64,000 nucleotides of DNA, taken from the NCBI RefSeq assembly GCF_044324875.1, contig NZ_CP172185.1. One strand, 5' to 3'. Source of the stretch: Escherichia coli. Its GTDB lineage: Bacteria > Pseudomonadota > Gammaproteobacteria > Enterobacterales > Enterobacteriaceae. This document shows, in pieces, positions 6,289-20,287 of this stretch. The notes below the pieces were generated by a model. The model saw only the letters and a list, made by a program, of their open reading frames with translations, ran no database searches and had not been told where the DNA came from. Made by a program: the position numbers and the translations under genes. The stretch's first letter is position 1. Every line of letters begins with the position of its first letter.

Positions 6289-7410
6289 TTACCCTTCGAA
6301 GAACCAATACCCGCTATTGACCAGCGCCGCGAGCATCGCGAGGAATGACGGATCTTCCAGCGCATCGCCAAAATTCTCCGCAGTCAGCGCAATGTTGCTG
6401 GCGAGTGCATCCAGTGCCGGACGGTGCGGGGAATCGATCTTCTCACCATTGGCATACACGTCGTCGCCAATGCGCAATACGCGCAGACCACCCAGACGCA
6501 CCAGCACTTCACCTTGTTTCAGCGCATCGTAGATTTCATCCGGCTGATAAGGCGGCTCTGGCGGCGCGATATCCAGTTCATGGCGTGACTGGGATATAAA
6601 CTCCCCAAACCATTGCTTAAAGTGTTCCGGCTGGTTGATCAATTCGAGCATCATCTCACGCAGTTTATCCATCTCTTGCGGCAGAACATCCGCAGGATGA
6701 GCGCGAGGTGAAACATCAGGATCGCTGTAGTAGTTGCCGCCCAGTTCACGTTGCAGCACATAATCGGCAAATCCGCTAATCAGTTCCCGCGTATTTGGTG
6801 CGCGAAAACCGACGGAATAGTTCATCGCATTTTCCAGCGCGTAGCCTTCATGGGGGAATCCTGGCGGAATATAAAGAATATCGCCTGGCTCCAGTTCTTC
6901 ATCAATGATGGCTTCGAACGGATCAACCTGTAACAGATCCGGGTGCGGGCAGTGCTGTTTCATTTGCAGCTTTTCGCCCACTCGCCAGCGACGACGTCCG
7001 GTACCCTGAATGATAAACACGTCGTACTGATCGAGATGCGGGCCGACGCCGCCGCCAGGTACAGAAAAAGAGATCATCAGATCATCAATACGCCAGTCCG
7101 GTAGTTCACGGAACGGTCGCATCAGCGCGGCGGTCGGCTCATGCCAGTGGTTCACTGCCTGCACTAACAATGACCAGTTAGTTTCACCGAGATGATCGTA
7201 GCTTTCGAACGGGCCGTGGCTGACCTGCCATTTGCCATCCTGGTGGCTGACCAGTCGACTGTCGACTTCGCTTTCCATCGCCAGACCCGCCAACTCGTCT
7301 GGAGAGATCGGGTCAATAAAATTATTAAAGCCGCGTTTTAACACCACCGGACGTTTCTGCCAGTGACGTTCAAGAAAATCGGGCCAGTTAAGAGTGAGTT
7401 GGTATTCCAT
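6289..7410 (-). CDS. roxA: ribosomal protein uL16 arginine hydroxylase (JmjC/cupin oxygenase) RoxA/YcfD
   Basis: MEYQLTLNWPDFLERHWQKRPVVLKRGF... matches YcfD. The start is taken at the MEYQ methionine. Confidence 0.9.
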   Translation of the reverse strand: MEYQLTLNWPDFLERHWQKRPVVLKRGFNNFIDPISPDELAGLAMESEVDSRLVSHQDGKWQVSHGPFESYDHLGETNWSLLVQAVNHWHEPTAALMRPFRELPDWRIDDLMISFSVPGGGVGPHLDQYDVFIIQGTGRRRWRVGEKLQMKQHCPHPDLLQVDPFEAIIDEELEPGDILYIPPGFPHEGYALENAMNYSVGFRAPNTRELISGFADYVLQRELGGNYYSDPDVSPRAHPADVLPQEMDKLREMMLELINQPEHFKQWFGEFISQSRHELDIAPPEPPYQPDEIYDALKQGEVLVRLGGLRVLRIGDDVYANGEKIDSPHRPALDALASNIALTAENFGDALEDPSFLAMLAALVNSGYWFFEG

Positions 7411-7611
7411 GTTAAGCATCCACAGGCTGGTATCTGCAACCGATTATAACGGATGCTTAACGTAATGCGTGAAGTATGGGCATACTTTATCAATTAGTGT
7501 TTTTTGCCGTTTCATAATGTTTCAGGTTGTGCATTATGTTTTTGATTATAAACAAATTTGTGATTTTTCTTGTTCCAGCTTGTTTCACGTTGTAGCCCTT
7601 TGTGCAACGAT

Positions 7612-7637
7612 CGGTGTAGTTAATGGTGTAGTTAATT
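7612..7637. repeat. attL core: CGGTGTAGTTAATGGTGTAGTTAATT
   Basis: Identical 26-mer at 18721-18746. It contains a tandem 12-mer GGTGTAGTTAAT x2. The imperfect repeat extends leftwards to 7580 (compare 18689). Confidence 0.85.
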
Positions 7638-7658
7638 GTGATGACCGGATTCAAAATT

Positions 7659-8888
7659 ATGAGCAGAGCACTTAACAAGCTGAGCGATACACAGCTAAGG
7701 AAAATCAACGGCACACCCGCCCAAAAAACAGCCTTTCTTAATGACGGTGGAAACTTGAGCGTCAGGCATTCAACCAGCGGCCTTTTAACCTGGTATTTCA
7801 CTTACAGGGCCGGAACGGGAAGGGGGGCATCACCGGAACGCATTAAGCTGGGAAATTATCCTGATCTGAGCCTGAAATCAGCCAGGGAAAAAGCCGCCCA
7901 GTGTCGCGCATGGCTGGCTGAGGGGAAAAATCCACGTCATGAGATGAATTACACCGTACAGGAAGCGTTAAAGCCTGTAACGGTTGGCGATGCGCTCACC
8001 TACTGGCTTGAGTCGTACGCAAAGGAAAACCGTGTGGATTATGACCCACTGAAAAAGCGGCTAAATAATCACGTAATACAGCACATTGGCCCTATGCCGC
8101 TGGATAAATGCGAGCTACGGCACTGGCTGGCCTGTTTTGATCGGGTGGCAAAGCAAGCCCCTGTTTCCGCCGGGTTCCTGCTACAGACATGCAAACAGGC
8201 GCTTAAGTTCTGCCGGAAGCGGCGCTATGCAATCAGCAACGTTCTTGATGATATGAGTGTGGCTGACGTTGGGAAAAAACCGGATATAGGCGAACGTGTC
8301 TTAAGTACCAAAGAACTGGGCGAATTATTGCAGGCACTGGACAAAAAAATATTTTCCCCTTACTACGTCGCACTAATCCGCCTCCTGATTGTTTTCGGAT
8401 GCCGGACAGTAGAACTGAGGTTATCGGAGATCGGCGAGTGGGATTTTACCGAAATGCTCTGGACCGTTCCGAAGGAGCACAGCAAAACGAAGGTAGCCAT
8501 ATTCCGGCCCATACCGGAAGCGATACTGCCGTTCGTCACGCAGCTGATGGAGCAGAACAGGCACACGGGCTTATTGCTGGGGGAAGTGAAACAGGAAACC
8601 AGCGTGTCGCAGTACGGCAGATTAGTGCACAGGAGGCTTAAACACCCTCACTGGTCACTGCATGACATCCGGCGCACCTTTACAACGATGCTGAACGATT
8701 TAGGCGTGGATCCTCACGTCGTGGAGCAGCTTACAGGCCACCAGATGCCAGGAATGCAGCGAGTTTATAATCATTCCCGTTATCTGGATGCGAAACGCAA
8801 TGCGCTGGATATGTGGACGGAGCGGTTAGGGATACTGGCGGGAGCACATGAAAACGTAACCACGCTACCAGTAACCAGAAGAAAATAA
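7659..8888 (+). CDS. int: P4-type tyrosine integrase (DUF4102 N-terminal arm-binding domain)
   Basis: The N-terminus MSRALNKLSDTQLRK...GNLSVRHSTSGLLTWYFTYR...LGNYPDLSLKSAREKA fits the DUF4102 pattern. The C-terminal catalytic region includes HDIRRTF and YNHSRY. The gene lies immediately inside attL. Confidence 0.9.
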   Translation: MSRALNKLSDTQLRKINGTPAQKTAFLNDGGNLSVRHSTSGLLTWYFTYRAGTGRGASPERIKLGNYPDLSLKSAREKAAQCRAWLAEGKNPRHEMNYTVQEALKPVTVGDALTYWLESYAKENRVDYDPLKKRLNNHVIQHIGPMPLDKCELRHWLACFDRVAKQAPVSAGFLLQTCKQALKFCRKRRYAISNVLDDMSVADVGKKPDIGERVLSTKELGELLQALDKKIFSPYYVALIRLLIVFGCRTVELRLSEIGEWDFTEMLWTVPKEHSKTKVAIFRPIPEAILPFVTQLMEQNRHTGLLLGEVKQETSVSQYGRLVHRRLKHPHWSLHDIRRTFTTMLNDLGVDPHVVEQLTGHQMPGMQRVYNHSRYLDAKRNALDMWTERLGILAGAHENVTTLPVTRRK

Positions 8889-8936
8889 TTTTTTTCGTGT
8901 TTTTTCAGTATGCGCATACTGGATAAGTGCACAGAT

Positions 8937-8970
8937 ACAACGTGAAACAATAAGCAACAACGTGAAACAA
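8937..8970. repeat. two direct copies of ACAACGTGAAACAA just 3' of int (candidate integrase arm-type sites)
   Basis: Copies at 8937-8950 and 8957-8970. The reverse complement TTGTTTCACGTTGT occurs at 7580-7593, and at 18689-18702 with one mismatch; each of those is 18 bp left of an att core. Confidence 0.5.
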
Positions 8971-9262
8971 CCACGAACAAGAGGTCAAAAAGTATACAGA
9001 TTTATAAGTTGCTGATTTTTAATGCTCAACTGGTTTTTTATACATTAGCGAATAACGCTTTAAATAGTGAGAAAAAAGTCATAAAACGAGATTTTATGCC
9101 TTTGCATAATACTGAATTAAAATGATTTTTATTAAAATCACCCCGTTTCTGTAAAATACCCGCCACCAACATTTGCCAACTCTGAATCACCCTGACACAA
9201 TCAGACACATCCCAACGCAATAGAACACGAAATAACTCTTTAAGAAACGAAAGGGGGCAATA

Positions 9263-9451
9263 GTGTTAAGCACTGATCGGTTTATACGTGAAAAAGAATG
9301 CGAAAAGCTAACAGGCCTTAGCCGCTCATGCCGCTACCGCCTGGAAAAGGCCGGACAATTCCCATCACGGCGTAAGCTGGGCGGTCGTTCCGTTGGCTGG
9401 TCTTTATCCGAAGTTCTGGCATGGAAGGAAAGCTGCGAGGCAGTTCACTAA
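9263..9451 (+). CDS. alpA: AlpA-family transcriptional regulator / excisionase-like HTH protein (GTG start)
   Basis: 62 aa. The segment FIREKECEKLTGLSRSCRYRLEKAGQFPSRRKLGGRSVGWSLSEVLAWK is the typical AlpA/Prophage_CP4-57 regulator pattern. An AAGGGGG Shine-Dalgarno lies upstream. Confidence 0.8.
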   Translation: MLSTDRFIREKECEKLTGLSRSCRYRLEKAGQFPSRRKLGGRSVGWSLSEVLAWKESCEAVH

Positions 9452-9716
9452 AAAGACTGGCGGCACACAGCCGCCACCCATCCACTAATACAGAGATTTA
9501 ACCATGAAGACTGGATATACGCCCGAACAGGGGCGGGGCTTCGTTCGGCCTGGTGAAACTGAAAAACAACAAAATCGCGGTTTTTCAGGCATAAAAAAAG
9601 CGGCCCCGATAAGGAGCCGCCTTTCTGAACAATTAACCTACAGCGCAAAAAATGAATCTGAGCAGTGGGATTATATCAACCGTGCAACGAAGCGCCACAA
9701 TTGCCGGATAACGGGC

Positions 9717-9744
9717 AAAGAAAAGGCCACCTGTCACGGTGGCC
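9717..9744 (-). terminator. intrinsic terminator downstream of the minus-strand RHH gene
   Basis: Stem GGCCACC / GGTGGCC. On the minus strand it is followed by TTTTCTTT. It lies 34 nt after the stop at 9778. Confidence 0.6.
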
Positions 9745-9777
9745 AATGTGATCAGTGTGGTGGCTTGCTGGTGGCTA

Positions 9778-9969
9778 TCAACCTTTGGGTTCTATACCGC
9801 GCCGCTTTAGTTCAGCGCGCCCCAACTCTTTAAGCCAGTTGGCTAGGCTTATGCCGTCGCTCTGCGCTTCTTTGTCGAATTGCTCTTTTAGCTCTGGAGA
9901 AATTCGCATTCTGAATTGTGGGGATTGCCCATCACCCTTAGGGCTTTTATCACGTTTGATTGTTGACAA
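9778..9969 (-). CDS. Arc/MetJ-type ribbon-helix-helix DNA-binding protein (TTG start on the ORF track)
   Basis: PQFRMRISPELKEQFDKEAQSDGISLANWLKELG fits the beta-strand plus two-helix RHH pattern. It is the only island gene on the minus strand, placed divergently to the early operon. Confidence 0.5.
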   Translation of the reverse strand: MSTIKRDKSPKGDGQSPQFRMRISPELKEQFDKEAQSDGISLANWLKELGRAELKRRGIEPKG

Positions 9970-10103
9970 GTGGTCACCTATTAAATTAGCCTTTCTATTG
10001 TTAGGTGGTCACCTTAACACGGGGACACTTAAAAAAGCAAAGCCCGAAGGCGCTAGGAACACCAACGGGCTTCTAACCACAAACCGTTATGAGAGGTAGT
10101 TTT

Positions 10104-10301
10104 ATGGCTGTAAGACAGCATACCCCACGACTAGCGCACACACAAACCGCCTTTGTGTGGCGTTTTCTGGCACTGAGTGCCGGAGAATCTCAAATCATCC
10201 ACGTAACCGCCTGGACGGAACGCGAAGCGCGTAGCCGTTGCCCGTCCGGTTGTGTTGCTGTATTCGCCGCCCGTATTCGTCAGGGGGTGTACCATGATTA
10301 A
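10104..10301 (+). CDS. Icd-like (host cell division inhibitor-like) small protein of P4-like elements
   Basis: The segment VTAWTEREARSRCPSGCVAVFAARI resembles the conserved core of Icd-like proteins annotated in P4-type islands, as I remember it. ATG 10104 follows GAGAGG. The longest ORF starts at 10089. Confidence 0.4.
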   Translation: MAVRQHTPRLAHTQTAFVWRFLALSAGESQIIHVTAWTEREARSRCPSGCVAVFAARIRQGVYHD

Positions 10302-10662
10302 CCTGTCACTTACCGATCTTAACCGCGTTCAGTTTCGTGAGAAATTTACCGGACAGCTACTCGTCAATGTGGAGAACGGGCGCATAGTGCGTAATTATCA
10401 CCTGCCGGATGGTGCAATTGCCGGAAGCGTTGAAGCATTGCTGGAACTGGCGGAACGTGCGCGACTGATTAAGCCGTCAACGAGCCATCACGATGATGAT
10501 CTGCATTTTACCGGATGTATGGTGAGTCACTACGAAAACGGCGTCGAGGTATCCTGCGAACGGCTGCGTGATGATTGCTGTTTCGGCACACTGCCGGAAT
10601 TTATCGAATTGCTGACCAGTTGCGGATATCAGGTTATTCAGGGGGTGCGCCATGTGCAATAA
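10291..10662 (+). CDS. hypothetical protein
   Basis: The ATG overlaps the upstream stop region (translational coupling). It is part of a tightly packed same-strand operon. No family was recognised. Confidence 0.5.
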   Translation, partial: TMINLSLTDLNRVQFREKFTGQLLVNVENGRIVRNYHLPDGAIAGSVEALLELAERARLIKPSTSHHDDDLHFTGCMVSHYENGVEVSCERLRDDCCFGTLPEFIELLTSCGYQVIQGVRHVQ

Positions 10663-11107
10663 CATCCGTCCGGACGCAGCAGGCGAAGCCATCATAACGC
10701 TAATGCACGCGCTGATTGATATTTCATGCACGGCAGCAACCGCAGAAAAACACATTACCAGAGAGCCGGAATATACAGGGGCAATAATCCCGCATTCGCT
10801 GGCCTACGCACAGCTAACCGCTGATATGGCGCTGAATGAGGCTAAAGCCATCCTGATTGCTGATTGTGAAAATGGGGGGGGGGTTATGCGTGATGATCGT
10901 TTTAATTCCCTGAAACAGGAATTTTCCGGCGTTCCTGATAATGCGGCTGATGCGCTTTCGTCAATATCTGAAATTATGCGGGTGGCTTTTTTCTTTCTTT
11001 GCACTGATGAGCACAGGGATACAGGGCTAAATATTCTTGATATCGCCGCTAATTATGCTGATTTCGTAACGGAAACTGTTTTAAGAAAAACGACGGACGG
11101 GGATTAA
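10652..11107 (+). CDS. hypothetical protein
   Basis: 151 aa. It overlaps the upstream gene by 11 nt. No family was recognised. Confidence 0.5.
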   Translation: MCNNIRPDAAGEAIITLMHALIDISCTAATAEKHITREPEYTGAIIPHSLAYAQLTADMALNEAKAILIADCENGGGVMRDDRFNSLKQEFSGVPDNAADALSSISEIMRVAFFFLCTDEHRDTGLNILDIAANYADFVTETVLRKTTDGD

Positions 11108-11108
11108 T

Positions 11109-11342
11109 ATGCGTGATATTTACCACGAAACAATAGACCGCGCATTTCTTGCACTTTCTCACAGTGAAAATATGTTGGAAATATTGCGCATATGTCTTGA
11201 AACGCTTGGAGATAATGAACGTGATAAACAGAAATCAATGATTGTCACGGCATTAATAACGCTTCTTGAGCCTGTAATAAATGAGTTGCAGGAAATAGAG
11301 ACATTACACGACCAGTATAAAGCGCCCCACACCGGAGAATAA
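11109..11342 (+). CDS. hypothetical protein (helical, acidic)
   Basis: 77 aa. It starts 1 nt after the preceding stop. No family was recognised. Confidence 0.45.
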   Translation: MRDIYHETIDRAFLALSHSENMLEILRICLETLGDNERDKQKSMIVTALITLLEPVINELQEIETLHDQYKAPHTGE

Positions 11343-11347
11343 AAAAC

Positions 11348-11635
11348 ATGAAAAATAAAAATTCTGGCGTTAATGCCAGCGGCCCCGCTCGTCCTGAAAT
11401 CCGTCCCGGCGATATTTTCCGTGATAACTACGGCGGCACGGTAATGATTAAGGGCGTGGAAGAACGGCGCGTAACCTACCGCCGTGATGGCTACGAATAT
11501 GACTGCGTTATGCCTGTTTATCAGTTCCGGCGTGATTTCACGCTGGTGGGCCATCGTAAAGCCGTTAATCAGAAACGTGCTGCAAGTTATATCCGCAAAA
11601 TCCGTGAAATGCTGGTCGCAGGGGGTAAGAAATGA
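11348..11635 (+). CDS. hypothetical protein, possibly DUF4222-like
   Basis: 95 aa. The pattern RPGDIFRDNYGGTVMIKGVEERRVTYRRDGYEYDCVMPVYQFRRDF resembles the small DUF4222 proteins of lambdoid phages; this is a low-certainty recollection. Its stop overlaps the rep start. Confidence 0.4.
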   Translation: MKNKNSGVNASGPARPEIRPGDIFRDNYGGTVMIKGVEERRVTYRRDGYEYDCVMPVYQFRRDFTLVGHRKAVNQKRAASYIRKIREMLVAGGKK

Positions 11636-13038
11636 AACTTGCACCGAACGTAAAACTGTTACCGAAAGATAAACACACTGAGGCGGTTATTTTTGCGGGT
11701 GATAATGCTCACTCCTTTGCAGAACATTACATGATTGCACAGGCCAAAAAAGCAGGCGATCCCATCCCTCCGGTTTACCTGGGCCGTTATCAGTTAAGCG
11801 AACTGGACAACTTACAGATTGTTGATGAAGGACGATACAGGGCAAAGGTCATACGCGCCGGAAACCTGGACGATATGCAGATGCTGACCATTGCCACAAA
11901 ACTGGCGATCGCCGGAGTCCAGGAGGCGCGCCTACTTTCTGAAAATTTCGAACTGCTGGAGGACTGGAGCGACCAGCTACCACGACTACGGGAAACATGG
12001 GAGAGAGGGGAAAGCCTGGTCATGAATGGCGGAAAGCGAAAAATCACACTTCCCATCTCATGGGGTTCTGAGGGATTCGATGCGCAGCAAAGCTACGTCA
12101 TTAAGGGGCTTATTCCGGCTGAGTCATTATGCAGCACCTACGGGGCCAGCGGTTCTTATAAATCGTTCCTCGCCATTTCCTGGTCGTGCCATGTTGCCAC
12201 AGGTATGGCATGGGGAGGCCGCAGGGTAAGTAAGGGTGCGGTTATCTATATCGCTGGCGAAGGCAGCATGGGCGTAAAACGCCGCGTTAAGGCGTGGGAG
12301 ATAACCCACGACAAGGTGGTTACAGATTTGTGCATCATTAACGCGCCTGTTTTCCCTGCATCGCCTGACTATGTGGAGCAGGTTATCAGGACTGCCGGAC
12401 TTGTTAAGAGCAGAACGGGCGAAAATGTGCGGCTGATTGTGATCGACACGCTGGCCCGTTGCTTTGGTGGGAATGATGAAAATGATTCCCGTGATATGGG
12501 CGCATTTATCCAGGGGTGTGACGCGATAAAGCAGGCCACAGGGGCCACGGTGCTGGTGGTTCACCATTCCGGCAAGGATGAAACAAAGGGGGCGCGTGGT
12601 TCCAGTGCATTCCGTGCCGCGCTTGATGCAGAGTACCGAATCAGCCGCGAAAATTCAGACGTTACAGCACTGGTCGCAGCATGTACGAAGATGAAGGACG
12701 CAGAGGAGCCAAAAGAGAGCGCATACGACCTTAAAAGCGTGGAGGTGTTCACCGATACAGATGGCGAAGAAATTGTGTCCATGGTGGTGATTGACGTTCC
12801 CCGCGCCCCTGCTGAACTGGAGCGCATCGAGGAGGCAGGCAACAAGACGGAAAACCATACCGCGCTATGGGGGTGCATCCGTTCACGCACACAGAACGGC
12901 GACAAGTGCACGATCCCGCTGTTACGTGATGACATGAAACGGCTTGGGTATGACGTGAAAAATATGCGGCGATGGTTAGCCAAACTGGAAAAAGACGCCG
13001 TGATTTACATTGATGGTGATGATGTAGGACCACTGTAA
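11632..13038 (+). CDS. RepA-like (AAA_25/RecA-fold) replication ATPase/helicase
   Basis: 468 aa with a Walker A-like GASGSYKS, Walker B LIVIDTLARC and VLVVHHSGKDETKGARGSSAF, typical of RepA/DnaB-like helicases. An iteron array follows immediately. Confidence 0.7.
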   Translation: MKLAPNVKLLPKDKHTEAVIFAGDNAHSFAEHYMIAQAKKAGDPIPPVYLGRYQLSELDNLQIVDEGRYRAKVIRAGNLDDMQMLTIATKLAIAGVQEARLLSENFELLEDWSDQLPRLRETWERGESLVMNGGKRKITLPISWGSEGFDAQQSYVIKGLIPAESLCSTYGASGSYKSFLAISWSCHVATGMAWGGRRVSKGAVIYIAGEGSMGVKRRVKAWEITHDKVVTDLCIINAPVFPASPDYVEQVIRTAGLVKSRTGENVRLIVIDTLARCFGGNDENDSRDMGAFIQGCDAIKQATGATVLVVHHSGKDETKGARGSSAFRAALDAEYRISRENSDVTALVAACTKMKDAEEPKESAYDLKSVEVFTDTDGEEIVSMVVIDVPRAPAELERIEEAGNKTENHTALWGCIRSRTQNGDKCTIPLLRDDMKRLGYDVKNMRRWLAKLEKDAVIYIDGDDVGPL

Positions 13039-13237
13039 AAAGTGAGTAGTAAAAGTGAGTAATGGTGAGGTTTTTACAAAATATTAACACAATTACTCAC
13101 TTTCTCACCTGTATACATGCTCAAAAGTGAGCAGTGAAAAAACACTTATGAAACATGCACATATAAAACACAAAAATCTCAAGTGAGACGAAGTGAGACG
13201 CTTTAAAAAGTGAGTAGTAAAAGTGAGAGATGGTGAG
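13037..13237. repeat. iteron-type replication origin candidate (AGTGAG repeats flanking an AT-rich core)
   Basis: A 33-nt repeat AAAAAGTGAGTAGTAAAAGTGAG(TA/AG)ATGGTGAG occurs at 13037-13069 and 13205-13237. An inverted CTCACTTTCTCACC lies at 13096-13109, AAGTGAGCAGTGA near 13125, and a tandem AAGTGAGACG x2 at 13181-13200. Confidence 0.65.
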
Positions 13238-13239
13238 CA

Positions 13240-13608
13240 ATGAATAAAAACCGAACAGCAGGACAAAATACCGAAGGTAAATTTATGAACACTGAAATTG
13301 AAACACTGAGCATATCAACTGCCCTTCCTGGCTGGTGGGCTAAGTTCAAAGACGACGACGGCACGGAATGGTATAGCCCAATTGCTGCATGGGCGCTTTG
13401 TGATATCCACCATTTCGGCACCGGAGATACTTACCGCGAAATCTTACCCGTGCTGACCAGTGAGCTGGGCATGAGTCCGCATAGTCCTGATGAGGGAATG
13501 TGCGAGTGCCTTTATCTGCCGGATAAGAAGTTTGTTCACTGTGGTGAATCGATGGTATTTGCCTGGTATCCGGTTAACGACAGCAGCAATAGCGGTACTC
13601 TGGAGTAA
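13240..13608 (+). CDS. hypothetical protein
   Basis: 122 aa (alternative start at 13285). Same-strand operon context. No family was recognised. Confidence 0.45.
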   Translation: MNKNRTAGQNTEGKFMNTEIETLSISTALPGWWAKFKDDDGTEWYSPIAAWALCDIHHFGTGDTYREILPVLTSELGMSPHSPDEGMCECLYLPDKKFVHCGESMVFAWYPVNDSSNSGTLE

Positions 13609-13611
13609 ATC

Positions 13612-13854
13612 ATGAAGGTAAACCACAAAAAGACAGATCACCGCGCCATTGACCTTACAGAGCACTGGCTGAGGGTGGCGATAAAAATCATCGACCGCAA
13701 CACGGGGGAAGGATACGCGAAAGCACATCCCGAACTGATAAGTGCATTCATGACCACAGCGGCGGCAAACTTTGCCACGCTGACAGAGCGGGATATTGCC
13801 GAAGCAGAACAGGTAACAACCATCAACGTTAAAACCAGTGAGGTGGAATCATGA
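13612..13854 (+). CDS. hypothetical protein
   Basis: 80 aa. It overlaps the ssb start by 4 nt (ATGA). Confidence 0.45.
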   Translation: MKVNHKKTDHRAIDLTEHWLRVAIKIIDRNTGEGYAKAHPELISAFMTTAAANFATLTERDIAEAEQVTTINVKTSEVES

Positions 13855-14261
13855 CAGCACAGATAGCGGCTTACGGGCGGCTGGTGGACGACCCGCAGGT
13901 AAAACAGACCAGTAAGGGTACACCGATGACGCTGGCGCGTATGGCGGTATCTTTACCATGCGGCCAGGCACAGGACGGACAGGCGACGTTATGGTTATCG
14001 GTCATCGCATTTGGCAAACAGGCCGACTTTCTGGCTAAACATCAAAAAGGCGACGTTGCCAGCGTATCCGGCACGATGCAGGTCAGCCAGTGGACCGGAC
14101 AGAACGGGGAAACGCGGCAGGGTTATCAGGTTATTGCAGACAGCGTAATCAGTGCCCGTGCGGCACGTCCTGGCGGGAACAGACGCAAAACCACAGGCAC
14201 ACAGGGTAATCAGCCACCAGCGGGAGGCGATGACCCTTACGGTGATGATATTCCGTTCTGA
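13851..14261 (+). CDS. ssb: single-stranded DNA-binding protein
   Basis: 136 aa with an OB-fold N-terminal region (AYGRLVDDPQ...TLWLSVIAFGKQA), a Gly/Pro/Gln-rich linker and the canonical acidic tip DDIPF. Confidence 0.85.
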   Translation: MTAQIAAYGRLVDDPQVKQTSKGTPMTLARMAVSLPCGQAQDGQATLWLSVIAFGKQADFLAKHQKGDVASVSGTMQVSQWTGQNGETRQGYQVIADSVISARAARPGGNRRKTTGTQGNQPPAGGDDPYGDDIPF

Positions 14262-14271
14262 GGGGGTGACG

Positions 14272-14544
14272 ATGGTACATGACCGCATAGCGGAGGAACT
14301 CGAGGCAAAAGGATTTTACCGGAGGGCGGCGGCGCGATGGGGTGAAGTTATGAGGCTGGTGAGCACTGACAAGGAGCGCGAACAGGTGGCAATGCGACGG
14401 CTGGAATGTTCCCTGAAGGCACAGAGGCCACCGGAGCCGCCGGATGATTTAGGCGCTCTGAAAAGGTCAGTTAATCGCACTGAAAAACAAATGGGGATAG
14501 CTGGTATTGGCAAAGCAATATGGCGCAACTACCCGCAGAAGTGA
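14272..14544 (+). CDS. PerC-family transcriptional activator-like protein
   Basis: MVHDRIAEELEAKGFYRRAAARWGEVM... matches the PerC/Pch signature (LE.KG.WRRAA.RW..V) as I remember it. The start is taken at ATG 14272 after GGGGGTGA. Confidence 0.55.
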   Translation: MVHDRIAEELEAKGFYRRAAARWGEVMRLVSTDKEREQVAMRRLECSLKAQRPPEPPDDLGALKRSVNRTEKQMGIAGIGKAIWRNYPQK

Positions 14545-14550
14545 GCACAC

Positions 14551-14573
14551 AGCCGGAGCAATCCGGCTTTTTT
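14551..14573 (+). terminator. intrinsic terminator ending the early/replication operon
   Basis: AGCCGGA-GCAA-TCCGGCT followed by TTTTT. Confidence 0.8.
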
Positions 14574-14584
14574 ACGCCTAAAAA

Positions 14585-14621
14585 AAGCCCGATAAGGTCA
14601 AAGGGGGCTTATCGGGCTTTT
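14585..14621 (+). terminator. second hairpin terminator
   Basis: 12-bp stem AAGCCCGATAAG / CTTATCGGGCTT followed by TT. Confidence 0.6.
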
Positions 14622-14784
14622 GTAGAGGAGGTTTTTTATGGTGCACTGGCACACATGATCGGGATAATCATTTCATAATTTGCAACATAACTCAATATTG
14701 TTGCGCAAAATGCAATCATGATTATAATCAGGACTGGATGAACATCCAGTTATGATTTTTTAAGTCAAAGAGGAATTTCTGACT

Positions 14785-14991
14785 ATGGCAGAAGAGAAAA
14801 AAGGCGGGGTGACGGTCTACATAAGCCCCGACATCGTGGAGGCGCTCAAGGAACGCCACCAGCAGAATGTAAAAGCAGGCATTGCGGCAGGACTTGATCC
14901 GCTGGCGATGGTTGAGCCGTCAACAGGCTGGCAGGTGCGTACCTATTTACGTGCGGCGCTGGGTATCAATCAGGTTCACGGAGGTGAATAA
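14785..14991 (+). CDS. hypothetical small protein, first gene of the capsid operon
   Basis: 68 aa. AGAGGA Shine-Dalgarno. Its TAA overlaps the capsid ATG (TAATG). Confidence 0.5.
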   Translation: MAEEKKGGVTVYISPDIVEALKERHQQNVKAGIAAGLDPLAMVEPSTGWQVRTYLRAALGINQVHGGE

Positions 14992-16046
14992 TGACAGGCA
15001 AAGCAAAGGCACTTACAACTAACCAGCTTTTCGCGTACCTGAATCGCGGGGATATTTCGGAATATAAATTTAGTCCGCTGTTTACCACGCTGTTTTTCCC
15101 GAACGTGGCGACCTTCAACACCCAAAACATCATGCTGGACACCCTGGACATTGAAGAGGTTACGATGTCAGCGTTCTGTTCTCCTATGGTGGGTAGTCAG
15201 GTCCAGCGCGATAAAGGGTACGAAACCAGCACGATTAAACCAGGCTACATGAAGCCAAAGCACGAAATCGATCCAACAAAGACCATCATGCGCATGGATG
15301 GAGAAGATCCGGCACAGCTTAACGATCCAACTTACCGCCGTATGCGCCTGATTACTGGCAACATGCGCCGCCAGATAAACGCCATTAAGGCGCGCGTGGA
15401 ATGGCTGGCGGTGAATGCGGTAACGACCGGAAAAAACATCATTGAGGGCGAAGGCATAGAACGCTATGAAATCGACTGGAAAATACCGGAAAACTGCATC
15501 ATACAGCAGGCCAGTGGTAAAAAATGGTCCCAGCAGGATAAAGACATGCACGACCCAATCTATGACATCGAGCTTTATGCTGATCAGGCAGGTTGCCCCG
15601 CCAACGTCATGATTATGGGCGGTGAGGTATGGCGCACATTACGCAGCTTTAAAAAATTCCGTGAACTGTACGATCTTTCCCGTGGATCAGAATCCGCCGC
15701 CGAGCTGGCCTGTAAAAACCTGGGCGAAGTGGTGAGCTTTAAAGGCTATCTTGGTGATCTGGCCCTTATCGTCTATTCCGGCAAATACACTGACAGCGAC
15801 GGGACCGAAAAATATTTCCTTGAGCCTGATTTGCTGGTCCTGGGTAACACCAACAATAAAGGGCTGGTGGCATATGGTGCGATTATGGATCAGGAAGCGG
15901 TAAGAACGGGCGCAACGCAAAACATGTACTACCCGAAAAACTGGATTGAGGACGGCGATCCGGCGATTGAGTACGTGCAGACGCACAGCGCACCGCAGCC
16001 TGTACCGGCAGATATTCGCAAATTTGTTACCGTCAAAATTGCTTAA
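14991..16046 (+). CDS. major capsid protein, lambda gpE family
   Basis: 351 aa. It aligns by eye along its length with lambda gpE: FSPLFTTLFFPN vs FDPLFLRLFFRE, KPGYMKPKHEIDP vs TPGYVKPKHEVNP, YPKNWIEDGDPA..SAPQP vs YPKNWVTTGDPA..SAPLM, and C-terminal FVTVKIA vs FVSVQLA. Confidence 0.9.
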   Translation: MTGKAKALTTNQLFAYLNRGDISEYKFSPLFTTLFFPNVATFNTQNIMLDTLDIEEVTMSAFCSPMVGSQVQRDKGYETSTIKPGYMKPKHEIDPTKTIMRMDGEDPAQLNDPTYRRMRLITGNMRRQINAIKARVEWLAVNAVTTGKNIIEGEGIERYEIDWKIPENCIIQQASGKKWSQQDKDMHDPIYDIELYADQAGCPANVMIMGGEVWRTLRSFKKFRELYDLSRGSESAAELACKNLGEVVSFKGYLGDLALIVYSGKYTDSDGTEKYFLEPDLLVLGNTNNKGLVAYGAIMDQEAVRTGATQNMYYPKNWIEDGDPAIEYVQTHSAPQPVPADIRKFVTVKIA

Positions 16047-16057
16047 CGGGGGATTCT

Positions 16058-16393
16058 ATGGACGCTCCATACATTGAGTTATTTTCAGGCAGCCAACAGG
16101 TATCCACGACGCTGGTACATTTTGCCGCTGATGCTGGCGTTATTCAGGAATTTACCCCGCTGATGCTGGCAGACAATGGCGAGTTTAAGCCGTGGGATGG
16201 TAAGGAATCTGGCAAGGCTGTTTATCTGACCTCGTACCCTGTGGACACGTCAAAGCAGAAATCAGCACAGTGTTACAAGACGGGGATATTCAATATTGCC
16301 GCCGTTAACTGGCCTGACAGCGTCGACACCGATGCGAAAAAATGCGCCGCCTTTGCGGGTTCCGGCGTATCCGTTCAGCCGCTGGCCCGATAA
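16058..16393 (+). CDS. head decoration protein, lambda gpD family
   Basis: 111 aa (gpD is about 110). TPLMLADNGEFKPWDG vs lambda TPLMLDTSSRKLVAWDG; YKTGIFN..VNWP...KKCAAFAGSGVSV vs YKSGTFR..VLWP...KKRTAFAGTAISI. Confidence 0.85.
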   Translation: MDAPYIELFSGSQQVSTTLVHFAADAGVIQEFTPLMLADNGEFKPWDGKESGKAVYLTSYPVDTSKQKSAQCYKTGIFNIAAVNWPDSVDTDAKKCAAFAGSGVSVQPLAR

Positions 16394-16467
16394 GCAGGGG
16401 GAACGATGGCACAAACCAGGGCGATGACGGCGACATCTATCGCATACTGAAAACCATCTGAGACAAG

Positions 16468-16490
16468 GCCGGAGAAATCCGGCTTTTTTT
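16468..16490 (+). terminator. intrinsic terminator after the capsid operon
   Basis: GCCGGA-GAAA-TCCGGC followed by TTTTTTT. It is the same hairpin family as the terminator at 14551. Confidence 0.8.
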
Positions 16491-16710
16491 GCGGGTCCTT
16501 TCCGGCATGTGGACCCGTTACGGGGCGTCGACCTCGCACGTTTTCGCTATTTATGAAAATTTTCCGGGAAAAAGCATGTCAGTTCTTCTTGTTATTAACA
16601 TATTGTTTTTAAAGAAATAACTATCAAGAAAGAAACGACATCATAATGATGAAAAATCTGTTTTTTTTGGCATTTCATGTCGTAACTGATTTTTGATAAG
16701 GAATTGCTGA
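16491..16710 (+). other. lambda-type cos region (cosQ-like 16493-16505, cosN cohesive-end 12-mer 16523-16534, cosB-like R/IHF region to about 16700)
   Basis: GCGGGTCCTTTCCGG...GTTACG|GGGCGTCGACCT|CGCACGTTTTCGCTATTTATGAAAATTTTCCGG compares with lambda ACGGGTCCTTTCCGG...GTTACG|GGGCGGCGACCT|CGCGGGTTTTCGCTATTTATGAAAATTTTCCGG (lambda recalled from memory). R2-like AAGAAAGAAACGACAT. It lies directly upstream of the Nu1 homologue, as in lambda. Confidence 0.8.
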
Positions 16711-17295
16711 ATGAATGTTAATAAAAAGAGGCTTGCCGAAATTTTTAACGTGGACCCGCGGACGATTGAACGCTGGCAGTCACAGGGGCTTCCTTGCGTC
16801 TCCAAAGGCAGTAAGGGCATTGAATCTGTATTTGATACTGCCATGGCAATTCAGTGGTATGCGCGGAGGGAAACTGATATCGAAAACGAAAAGCTCCGCA
16901 AAGAACTGGACGATTTGCGTGCGGCAGCGGAGTCAGATTTACAACCCGGCACCATTGACTATGAACGCTATCGGCTCACAAAAGCGCAGGCAGATGCGCA
17001 GGAACTTAAAAACGAGCGCGATCGCGGTGACGTGATTGATACAGAGTTTTGCATGTACGCGCTTTCAAAACTGGCGAGTCAGATTTCATCAATCATGGAC
17101 AGCCTCCCGCTTACTATGCAAAGGAGCTTCCCACAGATGACCCCCGCCATGCTGGATGGCCTGAAAAAAGAAGTTGTCAGAGCCTGTAACGCATGCACAA
17201 AACTTGATGAAAACATCCCGCGAATGCTGTCCGATTATCTGATGGAAACTACCGGAAATGTGCCTGATAAGTTTCAGCCGGATAAAGACAAGTAA
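16711..17295 (+). CDS. terminase small subunit, lambda Nu1 family
   Basis: [28 protein letters not shown]... vs lambda MEVNKKQLADIFGASIRTIQNWQEQGMP. A long conserved block is shared: IENEKLR...[26 protein letters not shown]. 194 aa vs 181 in lambda. Confidence 0.9.
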
Positions 17296-17313
17296 CGTAG
17301 TGCACAATGACCG

Positions 17314-17336
17314 AAGCCAGTTTACTGACTGGCTTT
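17314..17336 (+). terminator. hairpin after the Nu1-like gene
   Basis: AAGCCAGT-TTACTG-ACTGGCTT followed by T. The U-tract is short. Confidence 0.4.
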
Positions 17337-17635
17337 CAGCGTTGCGCTGGTGGGCGTTATGCGTCAGTGATAAACGTCTCCAATATTACTGATATTCGAC
17401 ATCCCCACCTCTCCACACCAGCTCGAATATCATTTTTCTCATTAAAAACAGGACATTAAAAACTGGTCAGATGTCCCATAAAAAGCCAAATGGGACAGGT
17501 CAAAAGCTTTTTTTGCAGTAATTTTCAATAGGTTACTTGATGTGGTGGTGTCCCATGAAAATTCAAAAATCAGCCGTTTTCCGCGATGCTCCCGCCCCGT
17601 GGCAGGGCACCCCACAAGGAGGACCCGCCATCACT

Positions 17636-17935
17636 ATGGAGGACATGACCATGACCGAGACCGAAGCGCTCGGGATAATCCGCAGTATTACCGGAATCAG
17701 CCAGCAGGCTGGCGAACAGGAGGCCACGCAGCCGGACAGCGTGATCGCCGAAAATTACGTGCGTGTTGTTGCTGATGTAATGCGCCGTGATGGTATTGAG
17801 CTTAACGGCGTGGATATGCGCGACATACGAATCAGAGTACTAGAGTTGCTGGCATACCGTCGACGCGTGGCGATGTATCAGGAGAGCGCGAAAAACACTT
17901 ATCAGTGGAAGAAGCCGGAGCGGTTACGGCGGTAA
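17636..17935 (+). CDS. hypothetical protein (accessory position between packaging gene and attR)
   Basis: About 99 aa from ATG 17636, with AAGGAGG 13 nt upstream. The longest ORF starts at 17537. No family was recognised. Confidence 0.4.
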   Translation: MEDMTMTETEALGIIRSITGISQQAGEQEATQPDSVIAENYVRVVADVMRRDGIELNGVDMRDIRIRVLELLAYRRRVAMYQESAKNTYQWKKPERLRR

Positions 17936-17937
17936 CT

Positions 17938-18510
17938 GGTTGATATTTTCGAAATTCGCCAGCGGCGAACATCGGGGAAACCAGCCTAACCAGTTGATTC
18001 TTTCGGAAACAGCCATTGGCGGAATCCGGCGCGGTAACTTGCTGATATTCCCGATAACGCAAAATTGCGCTGGCTACATCCCTCACATCTGAGGACTGAT
18101 AATGCGACATTGCGCTGGCTGGCAAAGTGCAAAATTGCACGATGGCCTAACCCATTGATTATTTCGAAAACCTGCAATGCAGGAAATCGGGGAAGTAAGC
18201 CTAAGCTATTGATTCTTTCGGAAACCTCAATTTGAGGAAGTCGGCGCGGTAACTCGCTGAACTTAAAGCAAACCTCAAAATTGAGCTGGCTGAATAATCA
18301 TTATGATTACGCAGATGATTAAGGAATGACCGAAGGCGGAAATTCGCCTGTGGTTGATGGGGGAGTTGCAGATCTGCAACTCGACCATGAAACTACGGAA
18401 ACTACCCGTAGTTTGGGTAGTAAGAGTAACACCCAGATTTTGGGACTTACTCGTGATACCCAAATTTGGAGTATCGGTGGCAACCATAACGACTTTCGTT
18501 ACGGTTGATG
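17938..18510. repeat. non-coding array of about 15 short palindromes/hairpins embedded in a duplicated scaffold
   Basis: Two homologous units (about 17941-18076 and 18155-18292) share flanks such as TTGATTCTTTCGGAAAC and CGGCGCGGTAACT. They carry different palindromes at the same three positions. Further palindromes continue to a 12-bp-stem hairpin at 18481-18507. Confidence 0.7.
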
Positions 18511-18720
18511 CTTTTACCCCATTGGGGGAAAGGTATTACGATAATCATAACACCTACCGAACAGGTAAAGCCCACCAGCCTGATTGACATTTAACCGGAA
18601 AAAAAGCCAGGTAGCCCCGTTATGTGGATCCCCATATCGACAGCAACGCCCCCTTAAAATTACCCGCCTTTATATTTCTTGTGCCTATTTGTTCCACGTT
18701 GTTTCATACAGTGCGCCGAA

Positions 18721-18746
18721 CGGTGTAGTTAATGGTGTAGTTAATT
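18721..18746. repeat. attR core: CGGTGTAGTTAATGGTGTAGTTAATT
   Basis: Identical to 7612-7637. Confidence 0.85.
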
Positions 18747-18826
18747 TGCGATTTTTGGCACTTTTGTTTGTGTATATTTTTAATTAAATCAATACATTAA
18801 CTAATATCGGTGATAAAAGGGCATAT

Positions 18827-20287
18827 TTATTCATCTTTCGGCGCAGAATGCTGGCGACCAAAAATCACCTCCATCCGCGCACCGCCCAGCATGCTCTCTC
18901 CGGCGACGATTTTACCCTCATATTGCTCGGTGATTTCGCGGGCTACCGCCAGCCCTACACCTTGCCCAGGGCGTAAAGTATCAACCCGTTGACCACGGTC
19001 GAAAATGACCTCTCGCTTGCTTAATGGAATACCGGGGCCATCATCCTCGACCACAATATAGAGATGCTCGTCGGTTTGCCTTGCAGATATTTCGACAAAC
19101 TCGAGGCAATATTTACAGGCATTATCCAGCACGTTGCCCATCACCTCGACAAAATCGTTCTGCTCACCGACAAAGCTGATCTCTGGCGAAATATCGAGAG
19201 AGATATTGACCCCTTTGCGTTGATACACTTTGTTCAGCGCCGAGGTGAGATTGTCCAGCAGTGGGGCGACCGGATGTAGCTCGCGGCTAAGCAATGTCCC
19301 GCCGCGCATACTGGCACGATGCAGGTAGTAGCCAATTTGCTGTGAAATGCGACTGATTTGCTCCAGCATTACCGGCTCAGCATCACTGACGCTCATCTTC
19401 TCACTACGCAGAGAACGCAGCGTACTTTGCAGCACCGCCAGTGGCGTTTTCAGACTATGGGTCAGGTCGGTGAGCGTTGTACGATATTTGTCGTAACGTT
19501 CGCGTTCACTTTTTAACAATCGGTTCAGGTTTCGTACCAGACTGGTCAGTTCTCGCGTTGTGGCTGGATTGAGCAATTCGCGGTTATGTTCTTCCAGTTC
19601 GCGGACTTCTTTTGCCAGGGCTTCGATGGGGCGTAAACTCCACCTGGCGGCGACCCACAGCAGCGGGATCACTAACAGCAGATTGGCTGAGAGCACATAG
19701 ATAAACCAGCTCCAGACCATATAGGAACTTTTTAGCTCCACCGGAATGGTATCCACCACCACAATGGTCAACTTTGGCATCCGCGATGTTGCCGGGTAGA
19801 CGTTTACCGCCACCGAGTGGGTCATCTCCGCGTCGTCATCATCTTCCCGCACTTCCTGCAACTGTTGCTGTATCGAATGATCTCCACTCAGCAAGAGGCT
19901 GGTATCGTTAACATCCGCTTCAATTTCATGAAAACCATTCGATTTCAGCCAGTCAGGCTGGATCATCTTCATCAGCCAGGGCACGTCACGTTGCGCCCAT
20001 AAAAGCTGCCCGTTCTCATCATAAATTAGCGTCATAGTGGGGCTTTGCTTGTCGATATTTTCGGGTAACTCGACATGCAACTTATTGTTTTCCCACTTCG
20101 CAAGGGTATAGAACAGATTGCTCTCGCCACGTAACAGCCGAAACGTAGTTTTATCGAAACTGACGCTATAACCGATCAGCGCGACCATTCCGTAGGCAAG
20201 CGAAAGCACCAGTACAACCGCTGCCGTTGCCAATAGAAAACGTACCCGCAGCGAGAGCGGGAAAAAAAGACGCAGTAATTTTTTCAT
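18827..20287 (-). CDS. phoQ: sensor histidine kinase PhoQ
   Basis: 486 aa, recognisable as the PhoQ sequence. H-box [10 protein letters not shown] and a C-terminal ATPase domain. Confidence 0.95.

Follow-up and report, generated by a model that had tools for sequence, protein, structure and literature searches.

Among the closest described relatives of the element reported here is EcCICFT073 (Fillol-Salom et al., ISME J 2018 and Mol Cell 2019), the archetypal E. coli phage-inducible chromosomal island (PICI), which is located between ycfD (roxA) and phoQ. Helper-dependent induction, packaging into phage particles, high-frequency transfer and helper interference have been demonstrated for EcCICFT073 only; its induction and transfer need AlpA, and the CFT073 prophage phi4 is a proven helper (PMC6092414). 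Its genes c1499 and c1500 were named putative capsid and head decoration proteins, and deletion of either altered neither transfer nor interference with the helpers tested, the packaged DNA being phage-sized (PMC6092414). The five core components of PICIs include both "capsid morphogenesis" and "small terminase", with 97% of those elements in which all five components occur coming from E. coli (de Sousa et al., 2023, PMC10085698); of 29 reference Gram-negative PICIs, 21 carry a major capsid gene (PMC10111431). In this study, a stretch of 64,000 nucleotides from Escherichia coli contig NZ_CP172185.1 (hereafter the window) was analyzed. The 11,341-bp island that it carries between roxA and phoQ can be assigned with high confidence to the classical Gram-negative PICIs, as a member of the EcCICFT073/EcCIRM12579 family at the published ycfD (roxA)–phoQ attachment (att) site.

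Pfam and PHROGs searches matched all five SatelliteFinder core components in the island, namely an integrase, an AlpA/MerR/Stl regulator, a primase-replicase, a capsid-morphogenesis gene and a small terminase (TerS). The components that this tool forbids (tail, holin, and the portal, large terminase (TerL) and connectors of capsid-forming PICIs (cf-PICIs)) were not found by the same searches among the island open reading frames (ORFs). In SatelliteFinder terms, the island very probably corresponds to a Type A PICI; the assignment was made through these component matches and assumes that the RepA-type replicase fits one of the five pri-rep profiles of the tool. The arrangement also agrees with that described for PICIs (Fillol-Salom et al., 2018). 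The integrase gene is leftmost and is followed by co-oriented alpA and replication genes in the order of EcCICFT073, an iteron origin lies immediately 3′ of the initiator gene, and a packaging determinant, consisting of cos and a full-length Nu1-family TerS, is located downstream of the replication module. The length of 11,341 bp falls within the range of approximately 10–15 kb, without tail, lysis or remaining phage structural genes. The att site is a dedicated one that is occupied by PICIs in CFT073, O157:H7 and the draft assemblies examined, and Table S1 (PMC6092414) has ycfD–phoQ among the EcCI sites. The same architecture, with conserved arms, occurs at two chromosomal sites (roxA–phoQ and, in strain TUM1886, tqsA), and all genes of the window island are intact apart from one deleted gene similar to c1501.

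An initial annotation, made from the letters of the sequence alone, had described the element as an integrating satellite that depends on a helper and belongs with the Gram-negative PICIs, and this description was supported. The ORF map and the Pfam/PHROGs matches agree with the gene order that it gave, and no TerL, portal, protease, tail, holin or endolysin homologue was found in any island ORF by Pfam, PHROGs and NCBIfam profile scans. As had been noted, no ORF of TerL or portal size accompanies the Rep ATPase: only the integrase (a 416-aa ORF) and the RepA ATPase exceed 351 aa, so that TerL, portal, protease and the like are excluded by size alone. The view that the island carries only shell, decoration and DNA-recognition parts, and hence depends on a lambdoid helper to supply TerL, portal, protease/scaffold, connectors, tails and lysis functions, was likewise upheld.

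The chromosomal flanks are roxA on the left (6289–7419, minus strand) and phoQ on the right (18827–20287, minus strand), which are neighbors in K-12, as the initial annotation had stated; the K-12 spacer between them is 75 bp, and the K-12 site is empty. Alignment with this spacer showed that the mobile unit measures 11,341 bp core to core and is bounded by a 12–13-bp core, GGGCATA(C)TTTAT, present as GGGCATACTTTAT at the left junction with the K-12-type chromosome (attL, 7478–7490) and as GGGCATATTTAT at the right junction (attR, 18819–18830). The attL core matches the core "GGACATATTT" given for the ycfD–phoQ PICI in Table S1 (PMC6092414). The ends had initially been placed at a 26-bp direct repeat enclosing 11,135 bp. 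This repeat is indeed perfect between 7612–7637 (plus strand) and 18721–18746, but the inserted DNA extends beyond it on both sides. As a crossover core, the 26-mer was ruled out because an empty site reconstructed from it matched none of 5,426 E. coli genomes at a coverage of at least 80%, and the comparison with K-12 puts the junctions elsewhere.

Each 26-bp copy contains a doubled 12-mer, GGTGTAGTTAAT twice in succession (7613–7636 on the left and 18722–18745 on the right, the latter within the right arm of attP). Six islands at two att sites were compared for this motif (the window island and those of loci L001, L003, L006, L007 and L008), and in them it starts 135–137 bp after the left core and ends 73–75 bp before the right core. 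The 125 bp to the left and approximately 70 bp to the right of the 26-mer are common to the near-identical island in tqsA of strain TUM1886, where the homology ends at the site's own core, ATAACAGCA. In an island with an integrase that diverges in its arm-binding N-terminus, the doubled motif reads GGTGTAGTCACT instead. Helper-embedded PICIs carry a "doubled motif" at −81/+132 bp from the attP center, which was described as unique to them (PMC10111431). Because the geometry in the window matches that motif, the 26-mers are probably, by analogy, integrase arm-type sites internal to the element. The exact 26-mer is given as att for EcCIDI14 in Table S1 (PMC6092414), and several long "att cores" of the same table are doubled motifs of the same kind that may be arm sites and not cores. 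A point for annotators is that the long "att cores" reported for certain E. coli PICIs have the look of doubled integrase arm sites, not of crossover sites.

The right arm of attP (18555–18818), in which the second doubled 12-mer lies, is conserved, being near-invariant up to the doubled motif in five islands. The approximately 170–190 bp upstream of the right doubled motif (18555–18720) are almost invariant in these five otherwise differing islands. As this tract exceeds the length that arm sites by themselves would lead one to expect, additional sites for bound proteins may lie in it, or a promoter directed across attP towards int.

EcCICFT073 resembles the window island in its site, core and doubled arm motif and in the gene order int, alpA, small ORFs, DUF4222, rep, ori, ssb, perC, 68-aa ORF, gpE, gpD, cos, packaging-specificity gene and ORF of approximately 93 aa. 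The 68-aa ORF, the capsid protein (351 aa) and the decoration protein (111 aa) have the same lengths in both islands, which measure 11.45 kb in EcCICFT073 and 11.34 kb in the window. Unlike the window island, EcCICFT073 has a primase-type Pri-Rep (584 aa) in the place of the RepA helicase, retains the 137-aa c1501 and possesses two cos sites instead of one; it encodes a 144-aa Rpp (c1503) that must pair with the helper TerS, whereas the window encodes a full-length TerS (24% identity). A second relative, the 11,210-bp island at ycfD–phoQ of O157:H7 (strain Z1816), corresponds to the 11.2-kb EcCIRM12579 entry (O157:H7–O55:H7 PICI) in Table S1 of PMC6092414. It shares with the window RepA, SSB, PerC, the 68-aa protein, the major capsid protein (MCP), the decoration protein, a full-length Nu1-family terS and a 93-aa ORF. 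It differs in that a 137-aa c1501-like gene is present and the accessory small ORFs are not the same, and its TerS has 180 aa with another N-terminal DNA-binding domain (MKSHLMNKKNMAK...), a type shared by the TerS of the TUM1886 PICI.

In view of these relatives, two claims of the initial annotation did not survive. It had supposed classical E. coli PICIs to be devoid of capsid genes, which is wrong, since EcCICFT073 has c1499 and c1500. It had also proposed a distinct and undescribed intermediate strategy, but the same genes occupy the same site in EcCICFT073, and a capsid gene together with terS belongs to the published PICI core. The element type, the att site, the capsid and decoration genes and terS are all already published, and a standard tool detects such elements.

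The packaging determinant consists of a cos site (16490–16710, plus strand) located directly upstream of terS (16711–17295, plus strand), in keeping with the cos–Nu1 pair originally noted. This cos is homologous to the lambda/21-type cos and comprises a cosQ-like element GGGTCCTTTCC, cosN GGGCGTCGACCT (16523–16534, plus strand, located by sequence comparison) and cosB, with three R-like elements upstream of terS (16574–16589, 16630–16644 and 16673–16686, plus strand). It is collinear with the cos of the CFT073 prophage phi4, the R elements in cosB differing at a few positions; the cos sequences of lambda, phi80 and phi4 are given in Fig. S5 (PMC6092414). The cosN of the window and of the TerS-type TUM1886 PICI reads GTCGAC (GGGCGTCGACCT), in contrast to GGGCGGCGACCT in lambda, phi80 and phi4, and the cos.1 of EcCICFT073 has the phage version. 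With the window cosN, the cohesive ends would differ from those of the helper by one base.

The product of terS is a full-length Nu1-type TerS of 194 aa (Pfam Phage_Nu1, E value, 1.4e-71; profile positions 1–161 of 164). Identity to lambda Nu1 is 53% along the whole length, and identity to RppA is 24%. Residues 1–100 are approximately 97% identical to the TerS of the CFT073 prophage phi4, and residues 1–54 match PDB entry 7lwr with 51 of 54 positions identical; the lambda Nu1 chain 6hn7_B was also matched. The C-terminal half shows only a loose relationship to phage TerS proteins and is identical to that of the TUM1886 PICI TerS, whose N-terminal DNA-binding domain differs from that of the window protein. 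By these comparisons, the window TerS reads as a mosaic of a phi4-type N-terminal half and a PICI-specific C-terminal half. The joint falls at a conserved 10-residue motif when the window is compared with L002:39933-40481 and L001:11476-12018. PICI small terminases thus look modular, with DNA-binding halves that appear to be swapped with phages and a C-terminal half that is kept, a point of use to annotators. An identical TerS protein was found on 107 public contigs, with the island at roxA–phoQ in all five loci examined; the window combination of cos and terS occurred in none of the complete E. coli genomes searched, and draft assemblies have it. Rpp proteins (approximately 144–153 aa) have a TerS-like DNA-binding domain without the TerL-binding C-terminus and act solely in a heterocomplex with the helper TerS (Fillol-Salom et al., 2019). 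An Rpp-type cos PICI was rejected as an identity for the island, whose protein is a full-length Nu1 homologue.

The capsid block is composed of three genes on the plus strand. The first encodes a 68-aa protein (14785–14991; phrog_3255, E value, 8.7e-36) that is present in all relatives and whose N-terminus looks like a ribbon-helix-helix (RHH) fold; a permissive Pfam scan of the 68-aa and 94-aa island proteins gave it a weak BrnA/RHH match (E = 0.15). Its single-sequence AlphaFold model (pLDDT 61, pTM 0.35) was too poor for a fold search and was not used. The second (14991–16046) encodes a 351-aa homologue of the lambda gpE-family MCP (Pfam Phage_cap_E, E value, 2e-49), orthologous to EcCICFT073 c1499 with 95% identity; it shares 43% identity with lambda gpE and 46% with the MCP of CFT073 phi4. 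The third (16058–16393) encodes a 111-aa homologue of the lambda gpD-family head decoration protein (Pfam HDPD, E value, 1.2e-17), orthologous to c1500 with 96% identity and sharing 33% identity with lambda gpD and 41% with the phi4 helper protein. Judging from these identities, the island gpE and gpD represent an old lineage separate from the helper proteins, and the values of 46% and 41% to the phi4 proteins agree with the separate PICI capsid clade reported previously (PMC10085698). The gene order also differs, being E-D-cos-Nu1 in the island versus Nu1...D-E (Nu1-A-W-B-C-Nu3-D-E) in lambda.

Pairwise ratios of nonsynonymous to synonymous substitution (dN/dS) among five islands were 0.08–0.18 for gpE, 0.04–0.40 for gpD and 0.08–0.26 for int, and 0.15–0.44 for the 68-aa ORF in the pairs with enough substitutions. 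As the ratios are well below 1 and comparable to those of int, the capsid genes are under purifying selection and are not decaying. Of 5,426 complete E. coli genomes, 597 (approximately 11%) have a full-length 68-aa–gpE–gpD block, and in these gpE and gpD always co-occur with the 68-aa gene.

Downstream of the block, a terminator-like hairpin with a T run, GGCCGGAGAAATCCGGC (16466–16490, plus strand; repeat family D6), is a copy of that at 14547–14573. The two copies, one after perC (14547–14573) and the other just before cos (16463–16489), are 89% identical, and the pair brackets the capsid block as a separate transcription unit.

Other satellite types share parts of this gene set. The cf-PICIs (EcCIEDL933) have the same kind of int, alpA and rep module and need a helper for induction, tails and lysis. 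Unlike the window island, they encode an HK97-type MCP, protease, portal, head-tail connectors, HNH, TerS and TerL and make their own small capsids, while the window MCP is of the lambda gpE family and is accompanied by no portal, protease or TerL. Membership in the cf-PICIs was rejected, no homologue of TerL, portal, prohead protease or adaptor/connector being present. Among the pathogenicity islands of Staphylococcus aureus (SaPIs), those of the pac type likewise carry a satellite small terminase, which redirects the helper TerL to satellite DNA, and SaPIbov5 encodes an MCP homologue (Ccm). SaPIs are nevertheless Gram-positive elements with other gene families, and SaPI TerS serves headful pac packaging, in contrast to the lambda-type cos in the window; Ccm demonstrably makes small capsids, whereas the EcCI capsid homologue is without a demonstrated phenotype. 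The helper-embedded PICI 11capE (PMC10111431) resembles the window island in size, gene order, possession of its own gpE-family capsid gene and a doubled motif in two co-oriented copies at approximately −81 and +132 bp from the attP center. Helper-embedded PICIs differ in being inserted in helper late genes and in having a TGTATTGC-based motif, and 11capE lacks terS; the window island has a chromosomal site, the GGTGTAGTTAAT motif and terS. A P4-like satellite was rejected, since the island ORFs match none of Psu, Delta, Sid, epsilon/Ash and the alpha primase-helicase and only int and AlpA are shared. A defective lambdoid prophage was also rejected: the island contains no immunity, lysis or tail genes and no remnants in contiguous head order, and its genes are intact and under selection.

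A life cycle can be proposed for the island from the published work on EcCICFT073, the window itself supplying the anatomy. A lambdoid helper would switch on alpA, and Int and AlpA would release the 11.34-kb element through a crossover within the GGGCATATTTAT core, with the arm domain of the integrase binding the doubled GGTGTAGTTAAT motifs approximately 80 bp upstream and 130 bp downstream of the core in attP. The RepA-type helicase would then fire the iteron origin 3′ of its gene, helped by the island SSB, and give rise to concatemers. The island TerS would bind the island cosB and recruit the helper large terminase (gpA type) for cutting at cosN. Packaging would proceed into helper-made procapsids, probably as a multimer, four copies making by arithmetic 45.4 kb (4 × 11.34), which is within the lambda packaging window, and the particle would be completed by helper connectors, tails and lysis functions. 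Because the DNA-binding/dimerization half of TerS and cosB are of the 21/phi4 phage type, the probable natural helper is a lambdoid phage whose terminase is of that type.

Several points weigh against the reading of the island as a functional PICI of this family. We infer its induction, excision, replication and transfer by analogy with its relatives. The 64-kb window contains neither a helper prophage nor a second cos: a single cosN was found, and no ORF of portal or TerL size. Its cosN is one base off the lambda consensus, a difference shared by the TUM1886 PICI. The literature searched yielded no functional work on a full-length Nu1-type TerS from any Gram-negative PICI, and for this reason the proposed TerS step rests on analogy with SaPI TerS and Rpp. 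Finally, the loss of the c1501-like gene may have left this copy less fit, a concern tempered by the presence of the deleted form in four of the five public assemblies examined.

The identification as a PICI leaves a recognized puzzle, as approximately 11% of complete E. coli genomes keep a constrained lambda-type capsid/decoration pair, yet its deletion is without phenotype in the model island. Two hypotheses are live for gpE, gpD and the 68-aa protein, namely capsid remodeling with the natural helper and interference with competing lambdoid phages. According to the latter, the block would be an interference or defense module in which the diverged gpE and gpD, with the 68-aa protein, poison or mis-assemble competing lambdoid capsids. 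The purifying selection on genes that are dispensable for transfer is in line with this proposal, as is their divergence from helper MCPs, which fits a dominant-negative role, and the SatelliteFinder authors describe the PICI capsid gene as presumably altering hijacked capsids and keeping phage DNA from being encapsidated (PMC10085698). However, deletion of c1499 or c1500 did not relieve the interference of EcCICFT073 with lambda, which was later assigned to Rpp, and the support for such a role is indirect; we consider it improbable. As for remodeling, it would amount to an intermediate satellite strategy in which an island gpE/gpD shell is built on helper portal, protease/scaffold and terminase, giving island-specific, possibly small capsids. 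Both genes are full length and under purifying selection and always co-occur with the 68-aa gene in the 597 genomes; island sizes cluster tightly at 11.0–11.5 kb, suggesting a packaging-size constraint, and SaPIbov5 Ccm and PmCI172 are published precedents of capsid homologues linked to small capsids. Against this stand an architecture that is canonical and not new, the absence of any effect of the c1499/c1500 deletions on transfer or interference in EcCICFT073, where all packaged DNA was phage-sized, and the identity of just 43–46% between PICI gpE and lambda/phi4 gpE, with which co-assembly with the helper scaffold or portal is not assured. Such a strategy is therefore judged improbable. Its specific form, in which the 68-aa–gpE–gpD block would, with a natural 21/phi4-type helper, assemble shells of the island's own on the helper portal and scaffold, possibly small heads for one or two 11.3-kb genomes, while the mosaic TerS delivers the helper TerL to them, is an equally doubtful proposition. 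If true, it would give the "phenotype-less" capsid genes a function and place these islands functionally between classical and capsid-forming PICIs.

The same block could be imagined as a decaying remnant of a lambdoid prophage head region, or of a cf-PICI that lost TerL, portal and protease. The deletion of the c1501-like gene in the window copy and the possession of int, alpA and rep by both cf-PICIs and classical PICIs are compatible with such an origin, but the remaining ORFs are all intact with dN/dS well below 1, the same short set of genes recurs in hundreds of genomes, and no fuller head module was found in the relatives examined. The E-then-D order is moreover the reverse of the lambda D-then-E order, the capsid and TerS genes of cf-PICIs form clades separate from those of PICIs (PMC10085698), and Pfam/PHROGs scans of the island ORFs found no cI/cro, lysis or tail remnants. 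Decay is accordingly regarded as extremely improbable. The initial annotation had itself named a deletion remnant as the outcome that would count against it; one 137-aa gene has in fact been lost from the window copy, but its relatives do not possess a full head module.

The lost gene has left a scar at 16403–16461 (plus strand), where the start codon of the c1501-like gene (137 aa in relatives) is joined out of frame to its last approximately 50 nt. Alignment with TUM1886 and CFT073 showed that the deletion occurred between two copies of ACGATGGCA, a 9-bp microhomology. In the complete-genome relatives examined, the gene sits between gpD and cos, and a direct gpD–cos–terS junction was present in none of the complete E. 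coli genomes searched. The deletion is shared by four of the five draft-assembly loci examined (L008, L009, L010 and L012), while in the fifth (L011) the gene is intact beside the same TerS. The c1501-like protein has no Pfam or NCBIfam match, and c1501 was rejected as a gpFI homologue as it shows no similarity to the gpFI of the phi4 prophage. RefSeq names the c1501-like protein (L001 10856-11269 and homologues) either "phage head-tail connector protein" or "hypothetical protein", and the connector label is unverified.

The remaining genes serve integration, regulation and replication and lie on the plus strand unless stated otherwise. The tyrosine integrase (7659–8888; Pfam Arm-DNA-bind_3 and Phage_integrase) has 409 aa from its ATG, the 416-aa ORF opening at a GTG at 7638; its arm-binding domain is of the P4 type, and it is 94–95% identical to the TUM1886 and EcCICFT073 integrases. 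It is followed by AlpA, a regulator/excisionase-like protein (9263–9451; Pfam Phage_AlpA, E value, 5e-18), and by a small Arc/RHH-like protein on the minus strand (9778–9969), accessory or regulatory, that matches Arc-like repressor family phrog_228 (E value, 4.6e-7) and, weakly, HicB. The segment 10089–11635 encodes an Icd-like protein, three small uncharacterized proteins and a DUF4222 protein (E value, 5.6e-26). The PHROG matches in this segment are mostly to families without an assigned function; the Icd-like ORF also matches transcriptional-repressor families, and its homologue is named "host cell division inhibitor Icd-like" in RefSeq.

The replication initiator is a RepA-family helicase (11632–13038; Pfam AAA_25, E value, 8.5e-43; phrog_2850, E value, 1.7e-187), the homologue of which is named "helicase RepA family protein" in RefSeq. 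This replicase is of the RepA-helicase type, as in the O157:H7 island, whereas that of CFT073 is of the primase type. Directly 3′ of rep, as in published PICIs, lies the replication origin (13036–13240), with iterons of the AAGTGAG family around an AT-rich center. The iterons had already been recognized in the initial annotation, and six of the eight AAAGTGAG copies in the window are located within 13039–13227, with approximately 1.8 expected in the whole window; the origin region also holds a 37-nt repeat pair (D4). The segment 13285–14544 encodes two small uncharacterized proteins, SSB (13851–14261; Pfam SSB, E value, 8.9e-17) and a PerC-family protein (14272–14544; Pfam PerC, E value, 1.2e-37), and relatives have the same genes. 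Two terminator-like hairpins (14551–14568 and 14732–14751, within 14547–14760, plus strand), each followed by a T run, separate the replication operon from the capsid genes. The terminators predicted initially correspond to these hairpins at 14551 and 14732 and to that at approximately 16466.

At the right end, a conserved 94-aa protein is encoded downstream of terS/rpp (17651–17935, plus strand; phrog_1561, E value, 3.9e-49); in EcCICFT073 its homologue comes after rppA, and in O157:H7 and TUM1886 it comes after terS. An NCBIfam scan of the uncharacterized island ORFs gave nothing usable. The 3′ non-coding stretch was rejected as a known RNA family because an Rfam E-value scan of 7000–19500 returned no match, and the small ORFs of 17936–18550 matched no family. 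This stretch (17936–18550) is rich in repeats and hairpins, with a 113-nt repeat present twice, a 23-nt repeat present three times and several inverted repeats of 12–33 nt. It is variable among related islands and without coding signal, whereas the last approximately 190 bp before the right doubled motif are near-invariant.

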